A program made the position numbers and the translations under genes. Under the pieces are notes generated by a model. It saw only the letters and a list, made by a program, of their open reading frames with translations. It did no database searches and was not told the origin of the DNA. Positions 19,890 to 58,053 of a stretch of 64,000 nt of DNA are shown here, in pieces. Source of the DNA: Bryobacterales bacterium (GTDB taxonomy: Bacteria > Acidobacteriota > Terriglobia > Bryobacterales > UBA6623); assembly GCA_965204095.1 (NCBI GenBank), contig OZ241991.1, forward strand, positions 2,640,290-2,704,289, read 5' to 3'. How positions within the stretch are numbered: the first letter of the stretch is position 1; every line of letters starts with the position of its first letter.

Positions 19890-21248
19890 ATGCACCCATT
19901 CTTGATTCTCCTCATCGCCGTCGCCGCGGTATTCGTGCTGATCATCCGACTCCGGGTGAACGCCTTTGTTGCGCTCATCTCGTCGGCAATCCTGATCGGC
20001 CTCCTCTCACCCGACATCGCTGTCAACGAGGTAGTCCCGGCCGTCGGTGAGCGCTTCGGGGATGTTGTCGGCCGCATCGGCATCGCGATCGCCATGGCCG
20101 CCATCGTCGGCCAGTGCCTGATGGAAAGCGGCGCGGCCGACCGCATCACCCGCCGCTTTGTTGCCTGGCTGGGCGAGGCCCGTTCCTCGCTGTCGCTGGT
20201 CGCGAGCGGCTACGTGCTTTCGGTGCCCGTGTTCTCGGATACCGTCTTCTATCTCCTGGTCCCCTTGGCGCGGGCGATGAGCGTCCGCATGGGCGGACGC
20301 AACTACGTTCTCTATGTGATGGCGATCTCCGCCGGCGGATCGGCCACGCACGTCTTCGTCCCGCCTACGCCGGGACCACTCGTAATGGCATCCACCCTCA
20401 GTGTCGATGTCGGCATCGTCATTCTCGTAGGTCTGTGCGTCGCGCTGCCCGCGTCGCTGTGCGGCTGGCTCTACTCGATATGGATCGACCGCAAGCTCGA
20501 CATCCCGATTCGCGAAGCGCCCGGGCTTTCCCTCGACGAGCTCGGCAGGATCGCGACGCGGCCCGAGGAAGAGTTGCCCGGTTTCTGGGCGTCGATGTCA
20601 CCGATCCTGCTGCCGGTCGTGTTGATTACCTCCAATACGGTGGCGAACACCTTCTACGAGGGAACCGGCCTCGCCCGCCTGACCGCTTTCCTCGGGAACC
20701 CGAGTTTCGCTTTGCTGGCCGGCGCGGTCGTTTCGCTGTGGCTCCTGGCTCGTCAGAACCGTCTGTCGCTCAAGCAGTTGGCCGTCCCCGTCGAGGAGGC
20801 CATCAAGAGCGCCGGCGTTATCATCCTGATCACCGCGGGAGGCGGGGCCTTCGGCGGAATGCTCGTCCTTGCGGGCGTCGGCGACATGCTCGGCGAGTCG
20901 GCGAGCGAGTTGGGCATGTCGCTGATGCTGCTCGGTTTCCTGCTCGCCATGCTCGTCAAGATCGCCCAAGGTTCCGGCACCGTCGCGATGATCACGGCTT
21001 CCGCCATCATGGCCCCGCTGCTCGCGTCAGCAGACCTGACCTACCACCCGGTCTATGTTCTGATGTCCATCGGCAGCGGCGCTCTCATCGGCACCTGGAT
21101 GAACGACAGCGGCTTCTGGGTCTTCCGCACGATGACCGGACTGACCGAGATCGAAACGCTGCAAACCAAGACAGCTCTCCTTGTCGTGTTGGGAACCACC
21201 GGCTTCGCCGTCACCCTGCTGGGAAGTTGGCTCTTCCCACTCGTTTAG
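19890..21248 (+). CDS. GntP-family (gluconate-type) permease
   Basis: ORF 19851..21248. Polytopic membrane protein with GntP-like N-terminus (LILLIAVAAVFVLIIRLRVNAFVALI). Its TAG stop (21246-21248) abuts the repeat. Confidence 0.85.
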   Translation: MHPFLILLIAVAAVFVLIIRLRVNAFVALISSAILIGLLSPDIAVNEVVPAVGERFGDVVGRIGIAIAMAAIVGQCLMESGAADRITRRFVAWLGEARSSLSLVASGYVLSVPVFSDTVFYLLVPLARAMSVRMGGRNYVLYVMAISAGGSATHVFVPPTPGPLVMASTLSVDVGIVILVGLCVALPASLCGWLYSIWIDRKLDIPIREAPGLSLDELGRIATRPEEELPGFWASMSPILLPVVLITSNTVANTFYEGTGLARLTAFLGNPSFALLAGAVVSLWLLARQNRLSLKQLAVPVEEAIKSAGVIILITAGGGAFGGMLVLAGVGDMLGESASELGMSLMLLGFLLAMLVKIAQGSGTVAMITASAIMAPLLASADLTYHPVYVLMSIGSGALIGTWMNDSGFWVFRTMTGLTEIETLQTKTALLVVLGTTGFAVTLLGSWLFPLV

Positions 21249-21520
21249 CCTGCATTTCTCACCACGCGGCGAGGCGAAGTGGGTGAGAGGGCCGTCAGGA
21301 CTAGGCTCAAGCCGGGCGGAGGAAAAAGGCACGAGCCGCTTGGCGCGCGCAGGCGTTCTTGAACAGTACGTCGAGCACGGCAAGCAAGCGCAACGCAAGC
21401 CGCCCTTGAGCGACGGCCGTGCCGCCTGCCCAGGTTTTGGGGTCACGAAACACGAGACACGAAACACGAATCACGGCCTTTTTTCGCGTGCTTCGACCGT
21501 CGGGTGGTGAGACATGCAGG
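21249..21520 (+). repeat. Hairpin repeat family, copy 3 (long variant, 272 bp, with heptad tract 21444-21476)
   Basis: Same termini and core, plus extra GGCTCAAG..CTTGAGC and GGGCGG..CCGCCC complementary inserts and cacgaaa cacgaga cacgaaa cacgaat cacgg. Confidence 0.9.
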
Positions 21521-21765
21521 TTAGGCCCGGTCAAGCCACATTGCGGTTTGTTTCGGTCGAGATGGCAAGGGCTGCATTCCCTCCGCTCTCGACTTCTACT
21601 GCCGAGCCCGATGTTCGGATGACATTCTTCTCGCGGACGGGGCTCACAAGCTCTGCTATGTGTTGGGCTGCGAGGTGTCTTGTAGAGGGCGCGAACCCTA
21701 TTGGGAGACAAGCCTCATCGCATTCAATGCGCTTACCTGACTGCGGCGAAGCTTTTTCGCCGATC

Positions 21766-24221: not shown

Positions 24222-24707
24222 TTCCAGTTCATGATGATAGCTGAAGATCCCGAACCACATCATTTCTACGGATTTCTGCCCGGGCGTTGATCGTTGACGA
24301 GTATGAACATGGCCGAGCTGAGGTTCAGGCAATCCCACACCAGCCGACATTCCCACAAACACCACACGTTTGTGTTCGTGTTTGGGCCGGTTTTGCGGTA
24401 TAGTAGTCTGACGCCGTTATTTTTGTTGTCAGACAGGCCGCTTCCTGGCATCCTGGAAATCGTAGCGCCAAGGAGGTTGCAGCCCCGGTTGGGTGTCACA
24501 GACGACAGGCTCCTCGGTCGTTCGGAGCCCGCGAAAAGAAATCTGATTCGCCGAAAAATACAAGGAAGAACACGTCTGAACAGCGGTCCAGGACGTCAAA
24601 CAGAATAGGAACCTTGCCACCCCGGTGTAGTGGAACAGCCGGGCCATCGGCAACGTTTTGTGCTTTAGGAGCATCTAATAAGTGAGAAGCTGTGCCGGAG
24701 AACGTGC

Positions 24708-26264: not shown

Positions 26265-26351
26265 CACCCAACCGGGCGGCATTCCCGGCCGCCCGGATCC
26301 ACGATACGTCCCCGCGGCAAGCACCAGGGCGAAGAGACATCACCAGCTTAT

Positions 26352-26599
26352 CCTGCTTTTCTCAACACGTGGCGAGACAAAGTGCGTGAGAGGGCCGTCA
26401 GGACGAGGCACGAGCCGCTTGGCGCGCGCAGGCGTACTTGAACAGTACGTCGAGCACGGCAAGCAAGCGCAACGCAAGCCGCCCTTGAGCGACGGCCGTG
26501 CCGCCTGCCCAGGTTTTGGGGTCACGAAACAGGAGACACGAAACACGAATCACGGCCTTTTTTCGCGTGCTTCGGCCGTCGGGTGGTGAGAAATGCAGG
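26352..26599 (+). repeat. Hairpin repeat family, copy 4 (long variant, 248 bp, heptads 26523-26555)
   Basis: Ends cctgcttttctcaacac / ggtggtgagaaatgcagg. Its right end abuts the TAA stop (26600-26602) of the minus-strand gene. Confidence 0.9.
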
Positions 26600-27391
26600 T
26601 TATGTCCCTGTGCTTGAATAATTCGCCACTCCCCGGTTCCACAAGACGATCGCCCCGGTCAAGAAAACTGCCATCACCAGCGGCAGCAAGGCCACGTACG
26701 ACTGATACTCCATCCTCTCCAGCAATACCGTCGAGGGATAGAAGCTTGCGAATGCAAAAGGAATCACCCAACTCAACAGAAACTGCACCAGCGGGCTATA
26801 GATATTCAGTGGATAACGTCCAAACGCCAGCATGTTGTACACCGGCGGGATAATACCAACCCGATCCTCCACCCAGAACGAAACGCAAGTCAGCATCAGG
26901 AATACCGCCAGGTAGATGATCAACCCGCACAAAGCAGCAGCGCCTAGAAACGCCCAGTCTTCTGGACCGTGTCGCAAGCCCAGCTCGTTGCTGGTGTAAG
27001 CCACGATGAAAAGGCCCGTGGCGGTGTCGCTCAGCGCCTCCAATCGGAACTGCTCACTCATCACTTGAAACAAGGAGTGGACCGGCCGTAGCAGAATTCG
27101 GTCAAACTTCCCTTCGACGATGTACGACTCGCCGAAGTAATACAGATTGATGCTCACCACGTTGAAGAGTGACAGCGGGATCAGCCCGAACCCATACAAG
27201 AAGAGAATCTCGTGAAACCGCCAGCCGGCAATCTCCGGCGCGCGTTGAAACAAGATGAACACCAACGCGATGCCGAAAGCGGTCGCAATCATGGTTGTGA
27301 TGACGGAAACGACGAAGTCGCCCTTGTAGGCCAAGCGCACTTTTGCATACTGCAGAAAATACTGTCCCAGCAGTTGGAGGTAACGTCCCAT
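26600..27391 (-). CDS. ABC-2-type transporter permease-like membrane protein
   Basis: Six predicted hydrophobic spans. The N-terminus YAKVRLAYKGDFVVSVI resembles ABC-2 family permeases. No ATPase partner in the window. Confidence 0.7.
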   Translation of the reverse strand: MGRYLQLLGQYFLQYAKVRLAYKGDFVVSVITTMIATAFGIALVFILFQRAPEIAGWRFHEILFLYGFGLIPLSLFNVVSINLYYFGESYIVEGKFDRILLRPVHSLFQVMSEQFRLEALSDTATGLFIVAYTSNELGLRHGPEDWAFLGAAALCGLIIYLAVFLMLTCVSFWVEDRVGIIPPVYNMLAFGRYPLNIYSPLVQFLLSWVIPFAFASFYPSTVLLERMEYQSYVALLPLVMAVFLTGAIVLWNRGVANYSSTGT

Positions 27392-27412
27392 CCGAATCGA
27401 CTCTGATAAGAA

Positions 27413-28726: not shown

Positions 28727-28764
28727 TTCAACCCTCTCGCCAACCCGGAATTCATGTCAGAAAC

Positions 28765-32866: not shown

Positions 32867-35233
32867 ATGAGCTTCGAGATTCGTAAGGTAGCCGTACTGG
32901 GCGCGGGCACGATGGGTTCTCGGATCGCGGCGCATCTTGCGAACGCCGGGGTCGAATGTCTGTTGCTCGATCTCCCCATCGAAGGCGCATCCACCGAAGC
33001 TGCCCGCAACGGCATCGCTGCGAAAGCGCACAAGGCCCTTCTCAAGTCACGCCCTCCGGCCCTCTTTACAGCAGACACGCTTCGGCGGATCGAGATCGGT
33101 AATTTCTCAGACCACCTTGCGCGTGTTTCGGAGGCGGATTGGATCATCGAGGCCGTTGTCGAGAACTTCGATGCCAAGCGCGAGATCCTCGCAAAGGTCG
33201 ATGCATTGCGTCGTCCCGGAGCTTTGATCACGACCAACACATCCGGCCTACCCGTCGGAAGGCTCGCTGAAGGCATGTCCGACGATTTCCGAAAGCACTG
33301 GCTGGGAACGCACTTCTTCAATCCGCCCCGCCACATGCGCCTGATGGAGCTGATTCCCACGCCTGAGAGCGATCCTCAAGTGGTCCACTTCGTCGCGGAC
33401 TTTTGCAGCCGGCGTCTCGGCAAAGTGGTTGTTTACGCCAACGACCGCCCCAACTTTATCGCCAACCGCATCTTGCTCTTTTCCGTCATGCACACGTTGC
33501 AGACCATGCGCTTGCATGGCTTGATGATCGAAGAGGTCGACGCCCTGACCGGGCCGCTTGTCGGACGGCCTCGCATGGCGACCTTTCGCCTGGCCGACTT
33601 CATCGGAATCGATGTCTGTCTCTTCGTTGCGGAAACTCTGCATCGCCTCGTTCCCGACGATGAAAAACACGAGGTCTACCGGCCGCCCGAATTTCTTCGC
33701 AAGATGGTCGAGCGGGGCTTCGTCGGAGACAAGGCCGGGCAAGGATTCTACAAGAAAGTCAAGGGCAAGGGCCGCCCCGAGTTGTTGGTTCTCGATCTCG
33801 AAACGTTGGACTATCGGCCGGCGAACAAACCAAGCTGGCCGGAATTGAAGCAAGCCGGGAAGGTCCGCGATCTTCCGGAGAGGATCAAGACGCTCATCGA
33901 CGCTCCCACGCCGGCCGGCCGCTTCCTATGGGAAACACTGAGTGAACTATTCCTATACACTGCGGCGCGTATTCCCGAGGTGACCGATGACATCCGGTCC
34001 ATCGACACGACCATGCGGACCGGGTTCAATTGGGAGAAGGGCATCTTCGAGATCTGGAACGGCCTCGGCGTCGAACAGACGGTTCAACGCATGAAGGACG
34101 ACGGCCGCGGGATTCCAGCGATCGTGGAAGCCGTGCTCGAGACGCCCGAAAAGTCCTTTTACCAGGAGAAGGGTCTTGAGGTCACCTACTTCGACTTCCC
34201 GGCAAAGCGCCACCAGCCGCTGGTCGATCCCGAGGGCTTCATCCGCCTTGCTTCTCTGCATAGGCGCAAGCGAATCTTGAAATCCAACGACAGCGCCAGC
34301 CTCGTGGACCTCGGTGACGGCATCGTCTGCTTGGAGTTTCATTCCAAAGCGAACTCACTCGATGAAGGCGTGCTCGGCCTGCTGCGGGAAACGATCGACG
34401 ACTGTGACGACAATCACCGGGCGCTGGTCATCGGAAATGATGGCGCTCATTTTTGCGTCGGAGCCAATCTCGCGATGCTTCTCGGATGGTGTCAATCGAA
34501 GAACTGGCAACGGATCGAGCAGGCTGTCGACGAAGTGCAAACGCTGTTCCGCGCGCTTCGCGGGCTACCCAAACCCACCGTCGCCGCCATCTTCGGGCAA
34601 ACGCTCGCCGGCGGTTGCGAACTCACGCTTCACTGCGACCGTGTGCAGGCCGCGGCCGAGACGTACATCGGACTGGTCGAGGTAGGCGCAGGTTTAATCC
34701 CCGCGGCCGGAGGCTGCACGGATTTGCTGCGCCGGCACACCGCCTCTCTTCAAGCGAAACACGATCTCACTCCTGCTACGCAAGCGGTCTTTGAACGGAT
34801 CGGCATGGCCAAAGTCTCCAACAGTGCCGAGGAAGCCCGCGAATGGAATCTCTTGCGGCCCGCCGACCTCATCACCATGAACCGAGACCACCTGCTATCC
34901 GATGCTTGGCAGACAGCTCGGCTTCTGGCCGCCGCTCCGTACCAACCGCCGCGGCGCTCCGAGATACTCGTCGGAGGACAAGGCACCCTGGCTGCCCTCA
35001 ACCTGGCGATCTATCTGCTGCACGAAGCCGGCTACATCAGTGGCTACGACCGTCACATCGGGTGCAAGTTGGCCACCGTTCTCGCCGGCGGGCCTCTTTC
35101 CCAGCCCGCTTGGGTTTCAGAGGACTATTTGCTCGGTCTGGAGAAAGAAGCCTTCCTCAGCCTCTGTGGGGAAGAGAGAACGCAGCAGCGCATAAGCCAC
35201 ATTCTGGAAACCGGCAAACCGCTCCGCAACTAG
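32867..35233 (+). CDS. Fused 3-hydroxyacyl-CoA dehydrogenase / enoyl-CoA hydratase (FadN/FadB-like)
   Basis: VAVLGAGTMGSRIAAHLANAG, HFFNPP and a C-terminal crotonase-like region (GGCELTLHCD). Its TAG stop (35231-35233) abuts the repeat. Confidence 0.9.
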   Translation: MSFEIRKVAVLGAGTMGSRIAAHLANAGVECLLLDLPIEGASTEAARNGIAAKAHKALLKSRPPALFTADTLRRIEIGNFSDHLARVSEADWIIEAVVENFDAKREILAKVDALRRPGALITTNTSGLPVGRLAEGMSDDFRKHWLGTHFFNPPRHMRLMELIPTPESDPQVVHFVADFCSRRLGKVVVYANDRPNFIANRILLFSVMHTLQTMRLHGLMIEEVDALTGPLVGRPRMATFRLADFIGIDVCLFVAETLHRLVPDDEKHEVYRPPEFLRKMVERGFVGDKAGQGFYKKVKGKGRPELLVLDLETLDYRPANKPSWPELKQAGKVRDLPERIKTLIDAPTPAGRFLWETLSELFLYTAARIPEVTDDIRSIDTTMRTGFNWEKGIFEIWNGLGVEQTVQRMKDDGRGIPAIVEAVLETPEKSFYQEKGLEVTYFDFPAKRHQPLVDPEGFIRLASLHRRKRILKSNDSASLVDLGDGIVCLEFHSKANSLDEGVLGLLRETIDDCDDNHRALVIGNDGAHFCVGANLAMLLGWCQSKNWQRIEQAVDEVQTLFRALRGLPKPTVAAIFGQTLAGGCELTLHCDRVQAAAETYIGLVEVGAGLIPAAGGCTDLLRRHTASLQAKHDLTPATQAVFERIGMAKVSNSAEEAREWNLLRPADLITMNRDHLLSDAWQTARLLAAAPYQPPRRSEILVGGQGTLAALNLAIYLLHEAGYISGYDRHIGCKLATVLAGGPLSQPAWVSEDYLLGLEKEAFLSLCGEERTQQRISHILETGKPLRN

Positions 35234-35420
35234 CCTGCATTTCTCACCACGTGGCGAGGCGAAGTGCGTGAGAGCGGCGTCAGGACGAGGCGCGAGCCGG
35301 GCGGAGGAAAAAGGCGCGCGCAGGTGTACTTGAACAGCACGTTGAGCACGGTAAGCAAGCGCAACGAAGTCCTGGCGGTCGTATCGCGTGCTTCGACCGT
35401 CGGGTGGTGAGACATGCAGG
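35234..35420 (+). repeat. Hairpin repeat family, copy 5 (187 bp; GGAGGAAAAAGG variant lacking half of the GC palindrome)
   Basis: Ends cctgcatttctcaccac / ggtggtgagacatgcagg. This is the uninterrupted reference for the intron insertion site. Confidence 0.9.
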
Positions 35421-35889
35421 CTAGTCCCGCCCCCGCCCCGCTACGCGGTGCGGATCATTCGAGCAAGAAACATCCGGATCGGCGCCATGGCTGCTTGATT
35501 CGGACGATGTTTCGGGTTCGCTTTTCATCCGCCTGCCTGCGGATCATGCGGAGAGGCGGGCAGGCGCCCAGAGGGCACCCGCGCGCTCCCAGGGGTTTGC
35601 TCCGCCCGGGTGTGAATCCTGCAAGAGGAACCCTTCGGGTTGGTGTCAACGCTGCTTGCATAGGGGGATGTTTCAGGTCAGCTTTGCACGGAGACGCTGC
35701 TCGCTCACTTCACAAGAGATTCCCCGACATCTCGCGCACGGGAGGGTGGAAACATCCCACGCCGACTCGGAGCAACTGTTGCCGGTCGGCCCGTGGCGGC
35801 ATGGCCGTCAAGTGGGCGGGACGATTCCGGGTGCTACGCTACGGGGAAAGCGCCGTCGGAGCGACGGTTGCCCTCGTACGAAGACCAAG

Positions 35890-39305: not shown

Positions 39306-40454
39306 ATGTCAAAACCAGATCGTCGTCAAGTCCTCACCTCTCTCGCCGCCTTGGGTGTCGGCTCGTCCGTAATGCAGCCGCTTTTTACAGCCGCATCGGC
39401 TGCGCCGAAGTCGTCTCTCACATCCCGCATCACGCGATTCGAGATTACGCCGACGAAACTTCCCTACTACGAGCCGGTCCGTGAAGCATTGACGGGTAGT
39501 TTCCTGCTGCAGAACCGTGATCAAACCTCTTTCGACCCGACCATGGTCAAGGTTCACACCGACGATGGATTGACCGGAATCTGCAACGCCATGATGCGAA
39601 GTCCGGACAGGATCGAAGCCACCCTGAAACGAATGGTCGGCCATTCGCCTTGGGAGTATCTGCACGACGATTCTCTCGCCGGTATCCTGGTGGCAGTCTA
39701 CGATCTTGTCGGACAGGCAGCGGGTCTGCCAGTCTCGCGCCTCTTCTCGACAAATCCGAAGGAGAAGATCGTTCAGACTTGGTGGAGTCAGTGCTATCCG
39801 CCGTCATTGATGGCCGAAGAGGCAAAGCGCGGCGAGGATCTGGGTTACAAGGTGCACAAGGTCAAGGCACGTCCGTGGCAAGATCCCATCGAGCAAGCTG
39901 CCGCGATTTGCGACGTCGTCAAGCGTGATTTCCGCATTTGGGCGGACGCCAACTCCTGGTGGGGCTCAGTGGGGCGGACCATTCACTTTTGCAATCGGCT
40001 GGCACAGTTCAACAACTATTTTGCGATCGAGTCTCCCATCAGGCGGCCGGGCATCGCCGGTTATAGGGCCCTCAAGGGAAAGGTGCCGCTGCAAATGAGC
40101 GAGCACATGACGCCCGATCCGATGCCGTACATCCGCGAAGGCCTCTTGGATACCTTCGTGATCGGCGGGCCACTCGGCAAGACGCTCATCAAACGCGCTC
40201 TGATGGCCGAAGTAACCAGGATGCCGCTCTGGGTCGAGCACAGTATCGAAGACGGCATCAACCAGGTCTTTCAGGCTCACCAGGCTGCGGCGTTCCCAGG
40301 CATCGAGTACACCATCAGCATTACTCATGTGCTTGTCGACGACCTGATGAAAGAACCGTTCGCGATGAAAGATGGCTTCTACACGGTTCCCACGAAGCCG
40401 GGTCTCGGCGTGAGCCTCGACGAGGATGCGATCGACAAGTACCGAACCTCCTGA
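39306..40454 (+). CDS. Enolase-superfamily (mandelate racemase/muconate lactonising-like) protein with a Tat signal
   Basis: ORF 39282..40454. Shows MSKPDRRQVLTSLAALGVGSS (twin-arginine), then KVHKVKARPW, WADANSWW and ESP. Confidence 0.75.
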   Translation: MSKPDRRQVLTSLAALGVGSSVMQPLFTAASAAPKSSLTSRITRFEITPTKLPYYEPVREALTGSFLLQNRDQTSFDPTMVKVHTDDGLTGICNAMMRSPDRIEATLKRMVGHSPWEYLHDDSLAGILVAVYDLVGQAAGLPVSRLFSTNPKEKIVQTWWSQCYPPSLMAEEAKRGEDLGYKVHKVKARPWQDPIEQAAAICDVVKRDFRIWADANSWWGSVGRTIHFCNRLAQFNNYFAIESPIRRPGIAGYRALKGKVPLQMSEHMTPDPMPYIREGLLDTFVIGGPLGKTLIKRALMAEVTRMPLWVEHSIEDGINQVFQAHQAAAFPGIEYTISITHVLVDDLMKEPFAMKDGFYTVPTKPGLGVSLDEDAIDKYRTS

Positions 40455-40497
40455 TGCGAAACATCTTCCTGATCAAGCGGCGTTGACAACGATCCGA

Positions 40498-40658
40498 ACG
40501 TTTCCCGCTTGAATGATCCGCACACGGGCGGAGGAAGAAGGCGCGCGCAGGCGCACTTGAACCGTACGTCGAGCACGGCATGCAAGCGTTGCGAAGGAAA
40601 AGCGAAGTCATGGCGGTCGTATCGCGTGCTTCGGCCGTCGGGTGGTGAGAAATGCAGG
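40498..40658 (+). repeat. Hairpin repeat family, copy 6 (left arm replaced by the GTTTCCCGCTTGAATGATCCGCAC module)
   Basis: From gggcggaggaagaaggcgcgcgcagg onward it is colinear with the consensus to ggtggtgagaaatgcagg. Confidence 0.85.
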
Positions 40659-40682
40659 ATAGGTTCTGATACCATCTCCCGC

Positions 40683-42826: not shown

Positions 42827-42887
42827 GACAATGCTCCCTGGCGCGGCTTCGGGTCTCCCGGCCAGCCACACGCAAAGAAATTTCTAG

Positions 42888-43064
42888 CCTGTATTTCTCA
42901 CCACGTGGCGAGGCGAAGTGCGTGAGAGGGCCGTCAGGACGAGGCGCGCGCCGCTTGGTGCGCGCAGGCGTACTTGAACAGTACGTTGAGCACGGCAAGC
43001 AAGCGCAACGAAGTCCTGGCGGTCGTATCGCGTGCTTCGACCGTCAGGTGGTGAGAAATGCAGG
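42888..43064 (+). repeat. Hairpin repeat family, copy 7 (177-bp core; used for the pairing analysis)
   Basis: Ends cctgtatttctcaccac / ggtggtgagaaatgcagg, flanked by TAG and CTA. Confidence 0.92.
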
Positions 43065-43130
43065 CTAGCATAAATGAAGAGATATGAATCAAAGTGAAAA
43101 AGAGGGTTCATCATCTGTGTAACACCCTGG

Positions 43131-43164
43131 CCTGCATGTCTCGCCACCTGGAGAGACATGCAGG
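43131..43164. repeat. 34-bp mini-hairpin made only of the family termini
   Basis: cctgcatgtctcgccacctggagagacatgcagg has a 12-bp perfect stem identical to the family ends (G/C allele). Confidence 0.85.
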
Positions 43165-46009: not shown

Positions 46010-47471
46010 CTACAAAGCCTTCGCTTCCTATGCGCGCGACGCCAACATCGTGCCGGTGTCCAAGGTGCTTACAGCCGACTTGGAGACACCGGTCTCGGCC
46101 TATCTGAAGTTGGCCGCGCGCCGCACCTACTCCTTCCTTCTCGAGAGTGTCGAAGGTGGCGAGAAAGTCGCTCGCTACACGTACCTCGGTGCGGATCCAT
46201 TCCTGGTCGTTGAAGCAAGCGGAGACAAGGTCGCCCTCCTGCGCAATGGTGACCGCCATGAGCTGAAAGGCAACGTTTTCCGCATCCTCCGCGAAACCGC
46301 CGCCGAGTTCCGGCCTGCCCGGGTCGAGGGGATGCCTCCGTTCTCGGCCGGCGCGGTCGGCTTCGTGGGGTACGACGCTGTCCGCCTGATCGAGCCGCGC
46401 ATACCCGCGTTCGACAAAGACGACTTGGAGACTCCCGATGCTGTCTTCCTGTTCTTTTCAACTCTGCTGGCGTTCGACCATGTCAAGCATCAGATTCACG
46501 TGATTGCCAACGTCCGCTGCGACGAATGGAAGGGGAAGCTCAAGAAAGGCTACGAACAGGCCTGTCGGCGCATCACGAAGATCGAAAGGACTCTCTCCTC
46601 GCCGTTGCGCCTGCCGCGGTCGCGCCCCCCCAAGAAAAAGGTAACCGTACGATCGAACACCGGAAAGAGGCGGTTCTCTGCGGCCGTCAAGAAAGCCAAG
46701 GAGTATATCCTCGCCGGCGACATCTTTCAGGTTGTGCTTTCGCAGCGTTTGAACATGAAGCCCGAGGTTGCCCCTTTCCAAATCTATCGGGCTCTGCGGA
46801 TGGTCAACCCTTCCCCTTACATGTTCTATCTTCACCTTGACGATACGGTGATTCTCGGCAGTTCCCCCGAGATGCTGGTCAAGGTCGATGGGGACCGCGT
46901 CGAATACCGCCCTATTGCCGGTACGCGCCCGCGAGGCAGTACGGAGGCCGAAGATCAGGCGTTGGCGAAAGACCTTCTCTCTGACGAAAAGGAACTCGCC
47001 GAGCACGTCATGCTGGTAGACCTCGGTCGCAACGACATCGGCCGTGTGTGCGAGTTCGGCTCGGTGAACGTCCCCGAGTTCGAGATCATCGAAAACTACT
47101 CGCACGTGATGCACATCGTGTCGAGCGTCACCGGCAAGCTGCGGCCGGATCGAGACGCCTTTGACACGCTCGAAGCCTGCTTCCCTGCCGGGACCGTTTC
47201 GGGTGCCCCGAAGGTGCGGGCGATGGAGATCATCGCGGAGCTCGAGCCGACACGGCGCGGCGTTTATTCCGGAAGCGTGATGTATCTCGATTTCTCGGGC
47301 AATCTCAACTCCTGCATCGCCATCCGCACGATGTTGGTGCGCAAGAACAGGGCCTACCTGCAGGTGGGAGCGGGCATTGTCGCCGACTCGGTCCCTTCAA
47401 AAGAGTGGCGCGAGACCATGGACAAGGCGGGTGCGTTGCTGAAAGCCGTCGAGACGGCCCGCAACCTGTAG
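45999..47471 (+). CDS. trpE: Anthranilate synthase component I
   Basis: Internal start at 45999 in ORF 45579..47471, overlapping the aroDE end by 11 nt. Shows LLESVEGGEKVARYTYLG and GAGIVADSVPSKEWRET. Confidence 0.95.
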   Translation: MQPDYKAFASYARDANIVPVSKVLTADLETPVSAYLKLAARRTYSFLLESVEGGEKVARYTYLGADPFLVVEASGDKVALLRNGDRHELKGNVFRILRETAAEFRPARVEGMPPFSAGAVGFVGYDAVRLIEPRIPAFDKDDLETPDAVFLFFSTLLAFDHVKHQIHVIANVRCDEWKGKLKKGYEQACRRITKIERTLSSPLRLPRSRPPKKKVTVRSNTGKRRFSAAVKKAKEYILAGDIFQVVLSQRLNMKPEVAPFQIYRALRMVNPSPYMFYLHLDDTVILGSSPEMLVKVDGDRVEYRPIAGTRPRGSTEAEDQALAKDLLSDEKELAEHVMLVDLGRNDIGRVCEFGSVNVPEFEIIENYSHVMHIVSSVTGKLRPDRDAFDTLEACFPAGTVSGAPKVRAMEIIAELEPTRRGVYSGSVMYLDFSGNLNSCIAIRTMLVRKNRAYLQVGAGIVADSVPSKEWRETMDKAGALLKAVETARNL

Positions 47472-47477
47472 TCTTAG

Positions 47478-47653
47478 CCTGTATTTCTCACCACGTGGCG
47501 AGATGAAGTGCGTGAGAGGGCCGTCAGGACGAGGCGCGCGCCGCTTGGCGCGCGCAGGCGTACTTGACGGTACGTTGAGCACGGCAAGCCAGCGCAACGA
47601 AGTCCTGGCGGTCGTATCGCGTGCTTCAGCCGTCGGGTGGTGAGAAATGCAGG
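47478..47653 (+). repeat. Hairpin repeat family, copy 8 (176 bp)
   Basis: Fills the gap between the convergent trpE and murB genes. Its right end abuts the murB TAA stop (47654-47656). Confidence 0.92.
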
Positions 47654-48631
47654 TTAGAACTCTCCTACGTACTGGACCTCTTCTTCGACCGCGAATCCGT
47701 AGCGATCGGCGATTCGCTGCTTGAGCTCCTCGATCAACGAACGCAGTTCGGCGGCGGTCCCTCCGCCGGCGTTGTAGATGAGATTGGCGTGGTAGTCGGC
47801 GACGGCAATCCCTCCGCGCCGCATCCCTTTTGCCCCGACTTGGTCGAGAAAATAGGCCGAAGCCACCTTGCCCTCACGGACGGCTCGCTCGGGAACTTCG
47901 GCCGCTGCCGACGGAGGCAAGTCTTTGACGTGGAGATTCTTGAAAATGCTTCCCGCGCAGCGCATCGTGGGCGGAAACTTCTCGTCGCGAATCGCCATGA
48001 TCTTGTCCGCGCGGCTCCGAAGCTCCGCTCGATCGGCCCGCTCCAGCAGCAGACTGCAACAGAAGATCATCCAGTCCTTGTTTCGCTTGAAGACGCTTCC
48101 CCGATATTCGAACGCGCAGCCCGCGTTATCCAGTTTCCGAACCTCCTCGCCGTCATAAAAGCGAACCCACTCGATACTCTCTGAAATGGAGTGTCCATAC
48201 GCACCGGCATTGCCGTAGATGGCGGCGCCGACCGAACCGGGAATGCGGGCCAGGGTCTCCAGGCCTCGGAGCCCTGCGGTGATCGCCGCATCCACCAGGG
48301 ATTCGAGCGCTGCGCCCGCGTCCGCTTGAAGCTGCAGGCCTTGCTGTTTGATGGACTTCGCCGTGAACCGCAGCACAAGGCCTCGATAGCCCGCATCCGC
48401 GATGATGACGTTCGTGCCGTCGCCGAGAATGCAGTACGGCACCTTGTGGGTTCTGCAAATGTGAACGGTCTCCGCAAAAGCTTCCGGTTCGGCCGTTTCC
48501 GCAAAGAGATCAGCGCGGCCGCCGATCCCGAAACGGGTGTACCCTCGCAGTTCCACATCGCTCCGTACATTCAGCTTCTCGACCTGCGCAAGCGACGACG
48601 CGACGGAATCCAAAGAGACAGGGTGTGTCAT
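47654..48631 (-). CDS. murB: UDP-N-acetylenolpyruvoylglucosamine reductase
   Basis: FGIGGRADLF, GSVGAAIYGNAGAYG and a FAD-binding PCMH-type pattern. Confidence 0.95.
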   Translation of the reverse strand: MTHPVSLDSVASSLAQVEKLNVRSDVELRGYTRFGIGGRADLFAETAEPEAFAETVHICRTHKVPYCILGDGTNVIIADAGYRGLVLRFTAKSIKQQGLQLQADAGAALESLVDAAITAGLRGLETLARIPGSVGAAIYGNAGAYGHSISESIEWVRFYDGEEVRKLDNAGCAFEYRGSVFKRNKDWMIFCCSLLLERADRAELRSRADKIMAIRDEKFPPTMRCAGSIFKNLHVKDLPPSAAAEVPERAVREGKVASAYFLDQVGAKGMRRGGIAVADYHANLIYNAGGGTAAELRSLIEELKQRIADRYGFAVEEEVQYVGEF

Positions 48632-48700
48632 GAGGGCAGTCTTCTCATCCTGTATCCATCGTAGAGCAGATGGACCCGACTGCTATAAGCTGATCCGATA

Positions 48701-48734
48701 GCCTGCATGTCTCGCCACGTAGTGAGACATGCAG
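48701..48734. repeat. 34-bp mini-hairpin made only of the family termini
   Basis: cctgcatgtctcgccacgtagtgagacatgcagg, lying between the divergent murB and DUF2461 gene starts. Confidence 0.85.
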
Positions 48735-48760
48735 GCTGACCCTTTCGACGAGGAGACGCC

Positions 48761-50515: not shown

Positions 50516-50642
50516 GACACCGGTCCGGCGGTTTCCCGCTTGTATGATCCGCACGCGGTCACAGGAAAAACTGACCTGCGTCTTCCGACCGGATCGTGAG
50601 CTGGTCATCCCTCTCGCACTCCCCGGACGTCCGGTACCCTAA

Positions 50643-50715
50643 CCTGCATTTCTCACCACGCGGCGAGGCGAAGTGGGTGAGAGGGCCGTCAGGACTAGGC
50701 GCGAGCCGGGCGGAG
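50643..50715 (+). repeat. Hairpin repeat family, copy 9, left part (split by the intron)
   Basis: cctgcatttctcaccacgcggcgaggcgaagtgggtgagagggccgtcaggactaggcgcgagccgggcggag. Joined to 52593-52720 it recreates the copy-5 variant exactly at the junction. Confidence 0.9.
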
Positions 50716-52592
50716 ATCGGGATAGGGGGGAGCCTCGCGGCTCCACCCCTCCCACACCACCGTGCATACGGGTCCGTACACGGCGGTTCGACGGATTTAA
50801 GCGGCTGCACGGGCTTCAACAGAGACGAGGCCGAGGTGCGCGAAGAAGGCATTGGATAGAGCGATCGCGAGCGCGGGACTGTTGCTGATCCGCCACGGGC
50901 CGTGGGCACTGCCAGCGGTTTGGGCCGCCAGATCCTTGCCGATGCCATGGCGGCGCAACGCCGCAAAGCGGGTGCGCCCGCGCTTCCACTGCCGCCAGAC
51001 GAGGGCGCGAAGCCGCCGTCTGATCCACTGGTCGAGTCGATGCAATACCCAGGGGGTCTCGCAGAAGCCGAAGTAGCCCCGCCACCCGACGAGGTAGCGA
51101 GACAGTTCCGCAACGAGATGGGCGAGACTGACGCTCTTGGTGCACTGCGTCAGTTCCCGGACCCGCGCCTTGAACCGAGCGAGTGTCTGCGGCGCGATGC
51201 GCCGCTTGACCGCTGGTCCGGCTGTAAAGCTGAAGCCCAGCAAGGCCCGCGCCACTGGACGATCCACCGCGCTCTTGTCTGCGTTCACCGTCAGCTTCAG
51301 TCGCCGCGCAAGGAAGCGGGTCACGCTCACCATCACCCGCTCGCCCGCCCGCCGGGACCGCACGTAAATGTTGCAGTCGTCGGCATAGCGGACGAAGCGG
51401 TGACCGCGCTTCTCCAGTTCCTTGTCCAGCACGTCAAGCATCAGGTTCGACAGCAAGGGCGAGAGCGGTCCGCCTTGCGGCGTCCCCTTGGTAGTCGGGC
51501 CGACCAGCCCGCCCTCCAGCACACCCGCGCTCAGGAAGCCGCGGATCAGCTTGAGCAGGCGTTTGTCGGCCACCCGTCTGGCCACCAGTCCCATCAGGAT
51601 GTCGTGGTTGACCCGGTCGAAGAATTTCTCCAGATCGAGATCGACCACGATGCCGAAGCCCGAGCGGATGTGGTTCTGCGCGGACTGGATTGCCTGGTGG
51701 GCCGAGCGTCCGGGCCGAAACCCGTAGCTCGCATCCGAGAAGCTGGGGTCCCACTCCCCCTGCATCACCTGCATCACTGCTTGCTGGATGAAGCGGTCGA
51801 GTACCGTCGGCACTCCGAGCGGTCGAACCCCGCCCGACGCCTTCGGTATCTCCACCCGCCGTACCGGCTGCGGGGTGTAGCTGCCGTCGAGAAGTCGGGA
51901 CCTGATCTCGGTCCAGTGGTCCTTCAGGTGATCGCCCAGCTCATCGACCCTCATGCCGTCGATGCCGGGCGCCCCTTTGTTGCGCCGGACTCGCGCCAGC
52001 GCCTTCTTCAAATTGCCGGGCTCGACGACCGTCTCCATCGACGGTCCCTGCCCAGCCGCCGGGCGTTCGGGTCCGGCACGCGCCAGGCGGGCTTCGGTCC
52101 CTTGGGCTCCGGCGCTCCGGGCTTCACCCTTCGCCTCCGGCTCCAAGGCCAGTTCCAACTGGATATTCTGCCGCTTGGTCCGCATGAGCGTACCGTCCTA
52201 CTAACCCTGTCCGTCGTTCGGGCCTTCGCCGGCGTGCCGACTACTATGCCCTCTGCTGACTTCTGCGCCGCGATCACGGGCCTTGCGGACCCGCTCAGTC
52301 CGGGACTTCCGGACACGGCGCAGACCTCCCGAGATAAGATCGACCGCCTTCACCGCGCACCCGCCGGATCTACCACCCCGGCCCTTGATGGCTATGGACT
52401 TCGCGATCATTCGCTCGCTCGTCCGGCCGGGTAGGCCTCGTATCCGGTTCTTGTCCATCGGGTCGCGGCTTTGCTCCACGCTTCCTTCAGACCCCGCCTC
52501 GCGACGACGCCCTTGCGCTTCGCTAATCCTTCGCCGCCATCGGGCTGGATAAAGGACTTGCACCCCCAAGCTGTCGATCATGCTCGGCATAC
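50716..52592 (-). mobile_element. Group II intron (1877 bp), IIC-like, inserted in repeat copy 9
   Basis: Boundaries come from comparison with uninterrupted copy 5. The minus-strand intron starts GTATGCC and ends ...CCCGAT (AY). It has about 407 nt 5' of the ORF and 81 nt 3' of it, including a domain-V-like hairpin near 50757-50795. Confidence 0.85.
50797..52185 (-). CDS. Group II intron reverse transcriptase/maturase (no endonuclease domain)
   Basis: RT blocks (GAPGIDGM, RRVEIPKASGGVRPLGVPTVLDRFIQQA, YADDCNIYV) and X/maturase region (RYLVGWRGYFGF). The short C-terminus has no HNH motif. Confidence 0.95.
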   Translation of the reverse strand: MRTKRQNIQLELALEPEAKGEARSAGAQGTEARLARAGPERPAAGQGPSMETVVEPGNLKKALARVRRNKGAPGIDGMRVDELGDHLKDHWTEIRSRLLDGSYTPQPVRRVEIPKASGGVRPLGVPTVLDRFIQQAVMQVMQGEWDPSFSDASYGFRPGRSAHQAIQSAQNHIRSGFGIVVDLDLEKFFDRVNHDILMGLVARRVADKRLLKLIRGFLSAGVLEGGLVGPTTKGTPQGGPLSPLLSNLMLDVLDKELEKRGHRFVRYADDCNIYVRSRRAGERVMVSVTRFLARRLKLTVNADKSAVDRPVARALLGFSFTAGPAVKRRIAPQTLARFKARVRELTQCTKSVSLAHLVAELSRYLVGWRGYFGFCETPWVLHRLDQWIRRRLRALVWRQWKRGRTRFAALRRHGIGKDLAAQTAGSAHGPWRISNSPALAIALSNAFFAHLGLVSVEARAAA

Positions 52593-52621
52593 GAAAAAGG
52601 CGCGCGCCGCTTGGCGCGCGC
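52593..52621 (-). terminator. Terminator-like GC hairpin plus U-run (minus strand) immediately 5' of the intron insertion point
   Basis: Minus strand reads GCGCGCGCC-AAGC-GGCGCGCGC-CTTTTTC, then the intron GTATG. Confidence 0.5.
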
Positions 52622-52720
52622 AGGCGTACTTGAACAGTACGTTGAGCACGACAAGCAATCACAACGAAGTCCTGGCGGCCATATGGCGTGCTTCAGCCGT
52701 CGGGTGGTGAGAAATGCAGG
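52593..52720 (+). repeat. Hairpin repeat family, copy 9, right part
   Basis: gaaaaaggcgcgcgccgcttggcgcgcgcaggcgtacttgaacagtac...ggtggtgagaaatgcagg. Its right end abuts the TAA stop (52721-52723). Confidence 0.9.
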
Positions 52721-53734
52721 TTAACTACCCGCCGGTGCGGGACTGTAACGGGGGGACAACAGTGAACCGTCGTCGATCGGAAGGCTCAACCGCACGAACC
52801 GCGGCGTGTTGGCGAAGGCGACCGTGACGTACTTGTAGAAAGAGCCATCCAAGGCGCGCGGCGCGGTTGGTAGATCCACGACTTTCTTCGTTCCATCCAG
52901 AAGAGAACTCAGCTCGTCGGCTCCCGGCAGCCCGGACGGAGCCTCGCCGGCGAGAGGCGGCCGCAGACTGCTGTAAACCGTATCGCCATCGATCGACACG
53001 ATGTGAATCTCGTCGATGGGACTGGAGTTCACAATGCGCAGTAGCCGGCTGTTGATTTCCTCCGTCGACCACCCGTCCTCCTCGGCGCCCACGACGAAGT
53101 ACTCCGCGAGCCTGGCCTGCACAACCATCTGCTTGCCGAGGATCTCCTCGAACACGACTCTGATCTCGTCCAGTTGGTCGGTAAAGGCGAAATCCAGCAG
53201 ATCCGGCTCGCCGAAGGCTGCCATCACCGCGGTCATGACCGGCGAGGTATAGGAGCCGCTCAGGAGATCGTGCTCCTCGAAGGCAAGCGCATTACCCACT
53301 TGCACGATCCGCTTGCGGTCGACGCCGTTGACCCCGACATACTTGTAGACTTCCTGATCGATCTCCCGCACCTGCGCCGATTGCGTGATGACGTGGTCGC
53401 TCTCGATGGGGGACGCAAGCAGGGCGTAGAACTTCGAGGCCTGCGGCTGCACAGCGGGATTGGGATTGAACCGGAAGGGCATCAGCGCGCCGGTTTCGTC
53501 CCGGACGTTGGTGAGATAGGCCACGCCCTGCTCGTCGGTGATCCAGAACTCGTCGAGCACCGTGGTCGAAGCGATGACTTCGAGGGTCTCGATCACTTGT
53601 GCGGCGTCATGCCCTCTCGCTTCGGCCACCGCCACAAGATGCGCGGCGATGCGTGCCTGGGCCGTCATCTGGCCGTCCAGCATCGCGTCAAGGGCGCGTG
53701 CGACCGTGGCTAGCGAGATTTTGGGCATTTCCAC
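52721..53734 (-). CDS. Hypothetical protein with an internal tandem duplication (two ~150-aa sensor-like halves)
   Basis: Residues ~20-75 (MTAQARIAAHLVAVAE...LDEFWITDEQGVAYL) parallel ~190-245 (MVVQARLAEYFVVGAE...IDEIHIVSIDGDTVY). No signal peptide or TM segment seen. Confidence 0.6.
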   Translation of the reverse strand: MEMPKISLATVARALDAMLDGQMTAQARIAAHLVAVAEARGHDAAQVIETLEVIASTTVLDEFWITDEQGVAYLTNVRDETGALMPFRFNPNPAVQPQASKFYALLASPIESDHVITQSAQVREIDQEVYKYVGVNGVDRKRIVQVGNALAFEEHDLLSGSYTSPVMTAVMAAFGEPDLLDFAFTDQLDEIRVVFEEILGKQMVVQARLAEYFVVGAEEDGWSTEEINSRLLRIVNSSPIDEIHIVSIDGDTVYSSLRPPLAGEAPSGLPGADELSSLLDGTKKVVDLPTAPRALDGSFYKYVTVAFANTPRFVRLSLPIDDGSLLSPRYSPAPAGS

Positions 53735-54174
53735 CTCCTCAACACAAGTGCTCCGTGCGTCCGGCTGCTGGTCACATGAAGTCGCATGCCCGTTCCACCG
53801 TGTGGAAAACGGCGAGTGCGGACCTCATCCAGCGGAAGCTGTGGCCCAGGATACCGAACGTTCGATTCGGAAGCATGGACGGTACTGCACCATCTCCTGG
53901 CCACGTGTACACGTATTTTCGCATACTACCCTCGCAGGTCAGGTATCGGCCGCATGATGGTCGGCGAGGGTTCGGCTAAACTACACTGACGGCCTGTCCG
54001 AGTGAGTCGTGACCTGCTCAAGCCCCTCCCTTTCATCACGCTACGGGGCCCGCACGGGCGGACGCCGCCGGATGAGACGGGGTAAGCTGCTTTCGCGAAG
54101 CGCCCAAAGCGGGAGCCGGAGCCCTGAGGATCGCCGGCAAGCGGGAGCTGCGGCTGAGCAATGACGAGAAGAGA

Positions 54175-55932: not shown

Positions 55933-55948
55933 GCAACCCGGCCGCAAG

Positions 55949-56190
55949 CCTGCTTTTCTCGCCACCTGGCCAGGCGAAGTGCGCGAGAGGACCGTCAGGA
56001 CGGGGCGCGAGCCGCTGGGCGCCGGCAACACGGCCTGTGCGGTTTTTCACAAAACACGAAACACGGCCTTTCATGCCTCGGGGTTTCGCATTTCCGGTTT
56101 TTGTCTTTGCATCACGAATCACGAGACACGAGACACGAATCACGGCCTTTGTATCGTGTGCTTCGGCCGCCGGATGGCGGGAAATGCCGG
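55949..56190 (+). repeat. Hairpin repeat family, copy 10 (divergent long variant, 242 bp, heptads 56048-56066 and 56113-56145)
   Basis: Ends cctgcttttctcgccac / atggcgggaaatgccgg, with an A-U to G-C compensatory change. Its right end abuts the TAG stop (56191-56193). Confidence 0.85.
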
Positions 56191-58053
56191 CTACCCCGGA
56201 GTGTCGTAGCGCAGGTCCCAGTTGCCGAGTTTGTGCAAGGTGGCCCCCGATTGTTGGATGACGGGCTCACCGGCGCGGACCCAGTCGGCGATCTCTTCGC
56301 GATGGCCGAGCCGCCGCAGGGCTGTCCAGGAGCGGCTGTAATCGCAACGCTGGTAGCAGTCCCAGAAAAACAGGTTCTCGACCCCCGCTTGATAGAGCCC
56401 GTGGGCGCGACGGCGATAATCCTCGGGAGTCATTTGCCGCGGCAGCAGGCTCGCCGCCACCTTGCATGAAGTGCCCCTGGTGATCCGCAGGAAGTACTCG
56501 GCGGCGCCGGGGTCCACGAACGTGTCCTGACTGCTGTTCAAACTGTCGGTCGAGGTGTAGGGGATCAAGGTGTCGACCAGCCCCTCGCGGATCCACTCTT
56601 CCAGATCCATCGCGTAGTAGAGGTTGGCCTGCTCGGTGCCCATCACGATGGCCGACACCTCGAAGGGACGCTTCCGGCCTTGCCGTCGGGCCTCGTCGTC
56701 GAGCGTTTCCCGAACCTCGCGCATGAACTGCGTGAGGTACGTGGCGCGGTGCTTCAACCAGCGGGGATCGCGTTCGTCGAGCTTGCGCGCATCTTCGCCA
56801 TACTTCTCCTCGAACCCCTTTACGATGGGCTCTTCGTACTCGACGAGTGGCGGCCTGCGGTTGTAGAGCAGGCAGATGCCATCGATGGGATAGGCCGCGA
56901 TCTCGCGAAACACCGAGAGCACGTATTGCCGCACGCCCTCATAGGCATAGGAAAGACGAGGCGTGGGCTGCCCTTGCCGATTGCGTCCCCGCCACTCGGG
57001 ACGCCGGTCGTAGAGTCCCCCGGTGTTCCATTCGTCCTCGGGCACGGGGAAGTGAAAGCCCGCCACCCGATACGAAGCGTGAAACTCGAGACCGGCTTCA
57101 CGGGTATGATCCGCCGCGACACGTAGTTGGTCGATGCCTTTCTCGCGAAACACCCGGAACGATTCCGCCGCGAGCCGGTCGCGAACCCGGAAAGGGTCCT
57201 GGACCCAGTCATTTGTCGCTGGCAGACCGATCTTCGTGGGGTAGAACATCTTGTCTCCCCCGCCGGCCTCCCAATAGATCCGGGAGAAATCGGTGTCGCG
57301 GTAGGGCTCGATCTCGCGCCGGATGTCGGCCTCCGTTGACGGCCGCAACCAGCTCACGTATCCCCAGGCATCGTTGTGCGCGTACAGGCGGCGGGTGTCT
57401 TTGCGACGGCGCTCCGCCTCGAGCTGTTCGACTTCCTCGTCGGACAAGGGCGTCAATTTGACATAGGCCAGCCACAGCGGAAGGCAGGAGTTCGCCACCG
57501 ACGCTTCGTTTTCGGGGACAAGCCGGGGGCAGAACTGCCGCAGGACCAGTCCCTCGCCGGTCAGGTCGGCGGTCTTCCAGTACAGGTCGTCGATGCGGGT
57601 TCGGGTGTCGAAGGTGGTTGGGCGAATCTCGTAGTCTCTACGGCTCTGTTTCTTGCCGACAACGTCGTTGTGGGTGATGAGACTGAAGGTGGATTCGCTG
57701 TCGAGCCGCATCTCGAGCCGCGACTCGCCGTAACGCGAGCGAAGCCCGAAGTGGATCGCGTGCCAGCCCTTGCGGTTGAGGGGCAGCGTGATCTCGGGAG
57801 CGGCGGTGTTGTGCCCCGCGACGAGCATGACTCCTTCGGTCTTGTCGCTCGCATAGTCGAGCAGGCGCCAGTGGTGGCGCTTGGGCTTTCGCGAAAGAGC
57901 CTCCGACGGCCGGCATTGACTGAAGTCCGAAAGATACACCGCCCGCTCTTGCCCATAGGCTCCAGAACGAAGAGCGCCGAGTAGAGTTCCCGCCGCGAGA
58001 ACCTCCCGTCTGCTCCACAGGCCGTTTTTAGTGTGTTCGTAGTTCATTGGCAT
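56191..58053 (-). CDS. Tat-signal hypothetical protein (620 aa)
   Basis: WSRREVLAAGTLLGALRSGAYG twin-arginine signal and strong codon bias. I cannot place the family; possibly a glycoside-hydrolase-like barrel. Confidence 0.65.
   Translation of the reverse strand: MPMNYEHTKNGLWSRREVLAAGTLLGALRSGAYGQERAVYLSDFSQCRPSEALSRKPKRHHWRLLDYASDKTEGVMLVAGHNTAAPEITLPLNRKGWHAIHFGLRSRYGESRLEMRLDSESTFSLITHNDVVGKKQSRRDYEIRPTTFDTRTRIDDLYWKTADLTGEGLVLRQFCPRLVPENEASVANSCLPLWLAYVKLTPLSDEEVEQLEAERRRKDTRRLYAHNDAWGYVSWLRPSTEADIRREIEPYRDTDFSRIYWEAGGGDKMFYPTKIGLPATNDWVQDPFRVRDRLAAESFRVFREKGIDQLRVAADHTREAGLEFHASYRVAGFHFPVPEDEWNTGGLYDRRPEWRGRNRQGQPTPRLSYAYEGVRQYVLSVFREIAAYPIDGICLLYNRRPPLVEYEEPIVKGFEEKYGEDARKLDERDPRWLKHRATYLTQFMREVRETLDDEARRQGRKRPFEVSAIVMGTEQANLYYAMDLEEWIREGLVDTLIPYTSTDSLNSSQDTFVDPGAAEYFLRITRGTSCKVAASLLPRQMTPEDYRRRAHGLYQAGVENLFFWDCYQRCDYSRSWTALRRLGHREEIADWVRAGEPVIQQSGATLHKLGNWDLRYDTPG

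Follow-up and report, generated by a model that had tools for sequence, protein, structure and literature searches.

A 64,000-nucleotide (nt) stretch of a Bryobacterales genome (Acidobacteriota; assembly GCA_965204095.1, contig OZ241991.1, positions 2,640,290 to 2,704,289), referred to here as the window, carries about 12 copies of a single type of small inverted-repeat element, roughly one every 5 kb, and six genes end flush against them. [quoted passage not shown] The copies that hug stop codons are ordinary transposon biology, a by-product of the target motif.

Copies in the window were located by a repeat search and by a fuzzy scan of the terminal 17-mer on both strands, and their coordinates run from the first C of CCTG to the last G of CAGG. 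Complete copies start with CCTGCATTTCTCACCAC and finish with GTGGTGAGAAATGCAGG. According to the window repeat search, the inverted ends span about 26-27 nt and the arms are 88-93% complementary. At 176-272 nt the MITE is too short for any gene; alignment of nine copies gives a core form of 177 nt, and the longer forms have an extra inserted module rich in CACGAAN heptads. The copies and their flanking tetranucleotides, left and right, are as follows.

Copy 1, 10233-10411, plus strand, 179 nt, decayed flanks CCAG/CTTG
Copy 2, 12733-12790, plus strand, partial, A-end only, inner boundary approximate
Copy 3, 21245-21524 with flanks (element 21249-21520), plus strand, 272-nt long variant, TTAG/TTAG
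Copy 4, 26348-26603 with flanks (element 26352-26599), plus strand, 248 nt, TTAT/TTAT
Copy 5, 35230-35424 with flanks (element 35234-35420), plus strand, 187 nt, CTAG/CTAG
Copy 6, 40540-40662, plus strand, partial, B-end half only, right flank ATAG
Copy 7, 42884-43068 with flanks (element 42888-43064), plus strand, 177 nt, CTAG/CTAG, intergenic
Copy 8, 47474-47657 with flanks (element 47478-47653), plus strand, 176 nt, TTAG/TTAG
Copy 9, 50639-52724 with flanks (element 50643-52720), plus strand, CTAA/TTAA, interrupted by a group II intron
Copy 10, 55949-56194, plus strand, 242-nt long variant, decayed flanks CAAG/CTAC
Copy 11, 61722-61906 with flanks (element 61726-61902), plus strand, 177 nt, GTAG/CTAA
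Copy 12, 63289-63562 with flanks (element 63293-63558), plus strand, 266-nt long variant, CTTA/TTAA

The flanks of copies 1, 10 and 12 are degenerate. Copy 1 begins 4 nt past the TGA stop of the open reading frame (ORF) at 7814-10228, and the left side of copy 6 is fused to a second repeat family that is described below. Small non-coding size, inverted ends, target duplication, empty sites, many copies and an autonomous element that shares its ends together characterise the element as a MITE.

The first-pass annotation had read TA-N-CCTG at the left end and CAGG-N-TA at the right end of seven copies (3, 4, 5, 7, 8, 9 and 11), a pattern that is present in all seven, and its view of them as mobile, MITE-like insertions with a TA-centred target duplication is borne out by the flanks and by empty sites. 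The 2-bp TA duplication that it had proposed does not hold, as the outer N bases vary together in the manner of direct repeats. The duplicated target has a length of 4 bp, NTAN, with a strong preference for YTAR (CTAG, TTAG, CTAA, TTAA). In the window, copies 3, 4, 5, 7 and 8 have identical tetranucleotides on both sides, three of them non-palindromic (TTAG, TTAT, TTAG). A larger set of 145 non-redundant complete copies was assembled from the window and from loci of related genomes (given L numbers below). A central TA is found on both sides in 96 of these 145 copies, far above chance. The identical flank pairs in the set are CTAG/CTAG (31), TTAG/TTAG (10), CTAA/CTAA (10) and TTAA/TTAA (3), while inverted-type pairs number only 1-2. 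Among the 61 informative central-TA pairs, 25 match directly and 2 match in the inverted sense. In the element frame, the first bases of the left and right tetranucleotides, one distal and the other adjacent to the element, are C,C in 41 copies, T,T in 27, C,T in 8 and T,C in 5 (odds ratio 28, p = 1e-9), and the fourth bases are G,G in 60, A,A in 10, G,A in 11 and A,G in 3 (odds ratio 18, p = 2e-5).

This covariation is the evidence that discriminates between the two duplication lengths and establishes that of 4 bp. An empty site alone cannot tell 2 bp from 4 bp, because the same total length is removed under both. Similarly, CTAG sites cannot discriminate, since CTAG is palindromic and a TA duplication with G…C element ends is identical in sequence to a CTAG duplication with C…G ends. 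That identity, together with the prevalence of central TA in the flanks, speaks for the earlier proposal of an IS630/Tc1-mariner-type MITE that duplicates TA only and whose terminal N bases rebuild the stop; IS630 itself inserts at CTAG, duplicating TA. However, the 25 direct against 2 inverted pairs and both odds ratios contradict it, and it would need copy-specific, non-complementary termini, for example G…T or T…T. Among the loci examined, as distinct from whole genomes, none showed an IS630-type transposase with MITE ends, and an IS1380-family element with matching ends was found instead. A TA-only origin is thus very improbable. The 4-bp duplication is also displayed where copies are nested in the internal CTAG of other copies (…GTCAGGA-CTAG-insert-CTAG-GCGCAAGCC…), a position at which many paralogues have a single CTAG. 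Use of the target is asymmetric in the element frame: identical TTAG duplications outnumber CTAA ones by 17 to 3 (p = 0.003), and about 83% of copies have G as the base adjoining the A-end, while only about 59% have C as the equivalent base at the B-end.

The six flanking triplets that had been noted as stop codons are the stops of real, long ORFs, five of them with clear Pfam families and the sixth with a conserved orthologue.

GntP_permease ORF, 19851-21248, plus strand, Pfam 4e-102; stop TAG at 21246-21248, the left flank of copy 3
ABC-2 permease ORF, 26600-27391, minus strand, ABC2_membrane_6; stop TAA (TTA at 26600-26602), copy 4
FadN-like ORF, 32867-35233, plus strand, 3HCDH_N/ECH_1; stop TAG at 35231-35233, copy 5
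murB, 47654-48631, minus strand, MurB_C/FAD_binding_4; stop TAA (TTA at 47654-47656), copy 8
Hypothetical gene, 52721-53734, minus strand, no Pfam family matched, 335-aa orthologue present in L099; stop TAA (TTA at 52721-52723), copy 9
GHL10-like gene, 56191-58053, minus strand, GHL10; stop TAG (CTA at 56191-56193), copy 10

Syntenic loci of relatives, obtained via MurB and BioA homologues with 75-99% protein identity, provide sites without the element, although an excised site and one that was never occupied are indistinguishable from sequence. The site of copy 8 is empty in L093 and L094 (…GAGTT-CTGA-GG-CTA…; window, …GAGTT-CTAA-element-CTAA-GA-CTA…), and MurB ends in …EF* at the same stop position, with 325 aa, whether the site is filled or empty. 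The stop of a convergent chorismate-binding gene (47469-47471) lies 2 nt from the copy 8 target, and the same distance separates it from the empty site in L093 and L094. The site of copy 4 is empty in L103 and L104 (…GGGAC-GTAG-GCTGC…) and filled in the window, L101 and L102 (…GGGAC-ATAA-element-ATAA-GCTGG…); the ABC-2 permease ends in …STGT* in all compared genomes and has 263 aa in both states. In L101-L104 a single CTAA or CTAG stands in place of copy 5, and the FadN-like protein ends in …LRN* in all compared genomes, again with an unchanged length (788 aa). For copy 9, the orthologous TTAA stop is unoccupied in L099, which has an intron-free element of its own 13 nt downstream, and the hypothetical protein, …SPAPAGS* in the window and …SPAPAAG* in L099, stops at the same position. 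Two copies away from the six genes are empty as well, copy 7 in L099 (single TTAG) and copy 12 in L046 (single TTCA). For GntP and for the GHL10-like gene no empty site is available for comparison, the relatives examined being occupied by an element as well: L101 is occupied by a 177-nt version at the same TTAG as copy 3, and L099 has an element at the same right junction as copy 10, which makes the latter insertion old and shared.

These comparisons bear on whether insertion shortened the adjacent genes or gave them different C-termini, with new stops, for which the abutment itself, and nothing more, can be adduced. Trimmed C-termini, raised as an alternative in the first-pass annotation, are refuted for four of the six genes (MurB, ABC-2 permease, FadN-like and hypothetical): orthologues without the element end at the same codon and have identical lengths, so the proteins are not trimmed and their stops are ancestral, lying inside the duplicated target. 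As a general account, truncation can be practically dismissed. Nor are the stops regenerated from the first base of the element, as had also been suggested, for that base is the C of CCTG and the whole TAR triplet is inside the duplicated target. For annotation, this means that stops adjoining CCTGCATTTCTC… in MITE-bearing genomes are genuine and that the proteins are not truncated.

The autonomous partner was found outside the window. L001 (JAPOWV010000036.1) is a 2.3-kb contig with an IS1380-family element and two MITE copies, binned as 'Gammaproteobacteria bacterium'; its repeats are of the Bryobacterales type, and the contig is therefore probably mis-binned. The element, at 356-2079 (1724 nt) and flanked CTAG/CTAG, encodes a 487-aa transposase that matches NF033539 ('IS1380 family transposase') at 4e-116 and PF13701 (DDE_Tnp_1_4) at 3e-147 with 491 bits, and its ends are CCCGCATTTCTCACCAG and CCCGGATATCTCACCAG. 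A 5.63-Mb long-read chromosome has three 1723-bp copies with identical transposase, each flanked CTAG/CTAG; a fourth copy, flanked CTAG/CTAA, is found in OZ244625.1, and transposases 82-94% identical occur in several Bryobacterales chromosomes. IS and MITE ends are identical at 15 of the 17 terminal nucleotides, and the IRR, the IS end downstream of the transposase gene, resembles the MITE A-end over about 45 nt. In addition, 57 related ISs (57-65% identical; soil and sediment metagenomes) have CCCGNATTTCTCAC ends and YTAR at nearly all flanks, which makes the target and the ends a property of a whole IS1380-family clade. Full-length elements with MITE ends on both sides comprise just this IS and MITEs that carry an IS110-family element or a group II intron. 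Two other candidates for an autonomous element were rejected: those of about 1618 nt are MITEs with an IS110-family insertion at MITE position 87/88, and the 2078-nt copy 9 is a MITE with a group II intron in it.

The MITE might instead be derived from, or moved by, a member of the IS5 group within the IS5 family, which would have the same target motif and duplication length. But no IS5-family transposase with MITE ends (CCTGCATTTCTCACC) is present in about 1 Mb of DNA examined from MITE-bearing genomes, the MITE ends match the IS1380-family clade across dozens of members, and NF033539, whose cutoff is 180 bits, gives the partner transposase a score of 388 bits. An origin in the IS5 group has accordingly very little probability. 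The IS630/Tc1-mariner assignment of the first-pass annotation is likewise unsupported, since in the loci examined matching ends and flanks accompany no transposase but that of the IS1380 family.

On the favoured reading, the IS1380-family transposase would act in trans on the MITE ends and integrate the element into a tetranucleotide with central TA, YTAR being strongly preferred. A putative 4-nt staggered cut would be duplicated to give YTAR-CCTG…CAGG-YTAR. YTAR holds TAR (TAA or TAG) on both the top and the bottom strand, so that a stop-ending gene on either strand offers a target, and the copy of the tetranucleotide on the gene side would still supply the full original stop after insertion. 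Selection would then filter the insertions, those in reading frames being purged and non-coding ones surviving.

Several observations weigh against this reading. Flanks are perfectly identical in only 62 of the 145 copies (about 43%), which is tentatively attributed to the age of the copies, whose mean pairwise identity is about 0.90. In several cases the tetranucleotide of the empty site differs from the duplicated one (CTGA/CTAA, GTAG/ATAA, TTAG/CTAG), so the exact ancestral target is reconstructed rather than seen. There is no IS1380-family gene in the window itself. Left and right flanks are often unlike in the IS contigs from metagenomes, and their pairing is weak; the differences are tentatively ascribed to collapsed multi-copy repeats in short-read assemblies. 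Flank pairing in such contigs is judged unreliable for that reason, and the reading rests on MITEs and on IS copies in long-read chromosomes. Finally, a local concordance in the orientation of copies, described below, is not predicted by an IS1380-family element with a YTAR target.

Abutment to stop codons is frequent in the larger set. An ORF of at least 100 codons ends in the flanking tetranucleotide in 44 of the 145 copies, and by gene calls that were crude (codon log-odds with greedy selection) 29 of 145 abut a stop. Such abutment is far above random placement, but exceeds the prediction from the target motif only marginally. Stop codons make up about one fifth to one quarter of the non-coding YTAR sites. 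By class of site, 29 YTAR sites at stop codons are occupied and 107 unoccupied, as against 85 and 493 at other intergenic positions, 1 and 404 in coding sequence, and 3 and 94 inside another element. Occupancy is thus 21% at stops and 15% at other intergenic sites (odds ratio 1.57, p = 0.07), and just one of 118 YTAR-flanked copies lies within a called gene. Within the window, elements occupy 4 of about 10 YTAR-type stops, compared with about 3 of the 23 remaining non-coding YTAR sites. The notion that stop codons are safe landing sites stands in so far as genes are left intact, but the enrichment beyond the motif is weak. Stop abutment is explained mainly by the target motif and by loss of insertions in genes, probably in promoters too; any extra preference for stops is small and unproven.

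Alternatively, the stop-adjacent position could be kept mainly by host selection for a function in the 3' untranslated region, with target choice secondary. Intergenic copies are more often in convergent (40) than in divergent (11) contexts, and the higher occupancy of stops has the direction that such selection would give. A 177-nt copy folds as RNA with -116.9 kcal/mol (z = -12.6), and a long hairpin might, in the manner of REP or Correia elements, end transcription or make mRNA more stable. However, a strong fold follows automatically from inverted ends and the excess at stops is not significant. The orientation of copies relative to the abutting gene shows no significant bias (A-end-proximal 13, B-end-proximal 22), and insertions are polymorphic among close relatives whose genes are unchanged. 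Retention by host selection is therefore unlikely as the main cause. The MITE hairpin may affect the 3' ends of transcripts, but a host function is not required by the present evidence.

One feature alone, the uniform local orientation of copies, may point to something new. The nine complete copies of the window all have one orientation, though neighbouring genes are on both strands. Adjacent copies in 8-kb loci are concordant in 52 cases and discordant in 1, raw strands from a scan with the 25-nt end agree in 19 of 20 multi-match loci among the matches listed, and in each of the six cases inspected the IS points the same way as the MITEs around it. Along OZ242366.1 the orientation changes in blocks of about 50 kb to 1 Mb and does not divide into two halves, so that a two-replichore pattern is unsupported as the cause. 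No correlation was found with GC skew, AT skew or third-position GC skew in 8-kb loci, in which skew follows the coding strand and not the replichores, and there is no link with gene-strand bias or with the strands of the flanking genes. Neighbours are no more alike than distant copies (0.882 vs 0.897), which leaves local hopping or gene conversion unsupported too. It is conceivable, if rather doubtful, that insertion orientation follows a polarity on the scale of the chromosome, for example the direction of replication when the element inserted, later scrambled by rearrangements, or some other domain-level feature. Oriented insertion is established for single-strand transposons (IS200/IS605) and Tn7; it is not known for IS1380 or piggyBac relatives.

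The scan with the 25-nt end, made with one genome per species, finds the MITE in many Bryobacterales metagenome-assembled genomes, at more than 92 loci among the matches listed. Judged by their names alone, the isolates APA, RHO and COS look like bins of sponge symbionts. Inserted copies differ in their interiors: copies 3 and 4 are of the long form with CACGAAN heptads (272 and 248 nt), and relatives 95-98% identical (L101, L102) have the 177-nt form at the same site with the same duplication, which indicates that a copy already inserted can have its interior swapped or lengthened without leaving its site. The window also has two mini-palindromes made up of the two inverted ends only.

Mini-palindrome, 43131-43164, no strand assigned, 34 nt, also present in L099
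Mini-palindrome, 48702-48735, no strand assigned, 34 nt, not present in L099

The second is missing from the orthologous L099 site and is thus an insertion polymorphism. Mini-palindromes of 34-47 nt occur elsewhere (L003 5716, L013 961, L019 7084, L063 2679), and their flanks show no clean duplications; internal deletion is one possible origin.

MITE copies are themselves targets of other mobile elements. The intron of copy 9 matches RF02001, RF01998 and RF00029, and it contains an ORF at 50797-52185 for a reverse transcriptase/maturase (RVT_1, GIIM).

Group II intron, 50716-52590, minus strand, inserted in copy 9 at the junction of GGCGGAG and GAAAAAGG, its 5' boundary being placed from the sequence

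An IS110-family element of about 1440 nt, which matches NF033542 ('IS110 family RNA-guided transposase') at 4e-100, is found within different MITE copies, inserted at GTACTT|GAACAGTAC with a TT overlap.

MITEs carrying the IS110-family element: L073 2511-4128 and 4847-6464; L015 6304-7921; L055 64-1681; L063 4244-5861; L067 2231-3838; L092 398-2050

The use of one internal position in different copies suggests that the centre of the MITE is the specific target of this element, in a manner similar to IS621 and its relatives, which target REP sequences.

A second repeat family, which contains …GTTTCCCGCTTGAATGATCCGCACACGGGCGGAGGAA… and has CCTGAAACATC as one end, directly adjoins MITE copies 5, 6 and 9. 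It shares a GGGCGGAGGAAAAAGG module with some MITE variants, and in L097 it occupies the junction between murB and the chorismate-binding gene that is empty in L093.

Second repeat family: window 35424-35685, about 40453-40539 and about 50516-50642; L097 3980-4070

Positions 1-1400 of the window are dense in other short repeats, which include heptads (CACGAAT/CACGAGA) and a unit of 85 nt, …CCGGCCGTCAGACATTTCTCCTGGAGCGAACCAGGCCCCC. The CTAG version of this unit has the IS1380-family element inserted in it in L186 and L187. The intergenic segment 16968-17145, for which Rfam gave no match at E <= 1, is 88-92% conserved across several genomes (L014, L022, L023), and in L014 its equivalent holds a MITE inserted at a site without TA (left flank TCAA, right flank TTGA).

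Among known systems, Correia, RUP and Stowaway elements, which derive from IS630/Tc1-mariner transposons, are also small, non-coding, abundant, intergenic and hairpin-folding, with inverted ends and TA at the junctions. They duplicate TA only, whereas the present MITE duplicates four bases and has a partner that is not IS630-like. REP/BIME and MIRU-type repeats are also located at the 3' ends of genes, with MIRUs overlapping the stop and start codons of the genes next to them; unlike the MITE, these repeats are not derivatives of DDE transposons with target duplications. IS5, of the IS5 group, has a YTAR target and a 4-bp duplication, so the same coincidence with stop codons is expected of it, but its transposase is of another family and its ends are unrelated to those of the MITE.

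Members of the IS1380 family (IS1380, IS1247, ISEcp1) are likewise about 1.7 kb long, with a single ORF, short inverted ends that start with CC and a short duplication. In this family the duplication is 4-5 bp. IS1247, for instance, has 1672 bp, 16/13 inverted repeats and a 5-bp duplication (PMC3281130, Table 2). The present clade differs in its strict central-TA, YTAR-preferring 4-bp target and its highly conserved CCCGNATTTCTCAC end, and in having given rise to an abundant MITE family. No family matching the MITE is present in Rfam, and neither an IS1380-derived MITE nor this repeat itself was found described in the literature searched, so this may be the first abundant IS1380-derived MITE family to be described. 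IS1380 is the bacterial cousin of piggyBac, and IS1380 transposases serve as the prokaryotic outgroup of piggyBac (PMC10813416). The 4-bp central-TA duplication of piggyBac (TTAA) and its ends starting with CC(C) have counterparts in the MITE, whose target is degenerate (CTAG > TTAG > CTAA > TTAA), in contrast to the strict TTAA of piggyBac, and whose host is bacterial. Any transposon with a YTAR- or TTAA-like target can lie immediately next to a TAA or TAG stop, whichever strand the gene is on, and leave the gene unharmed. With a candidate transposase (P0244 and its relatives) and a defined target, the system described here offers a possible bacterial model for piggyBac-like integration.

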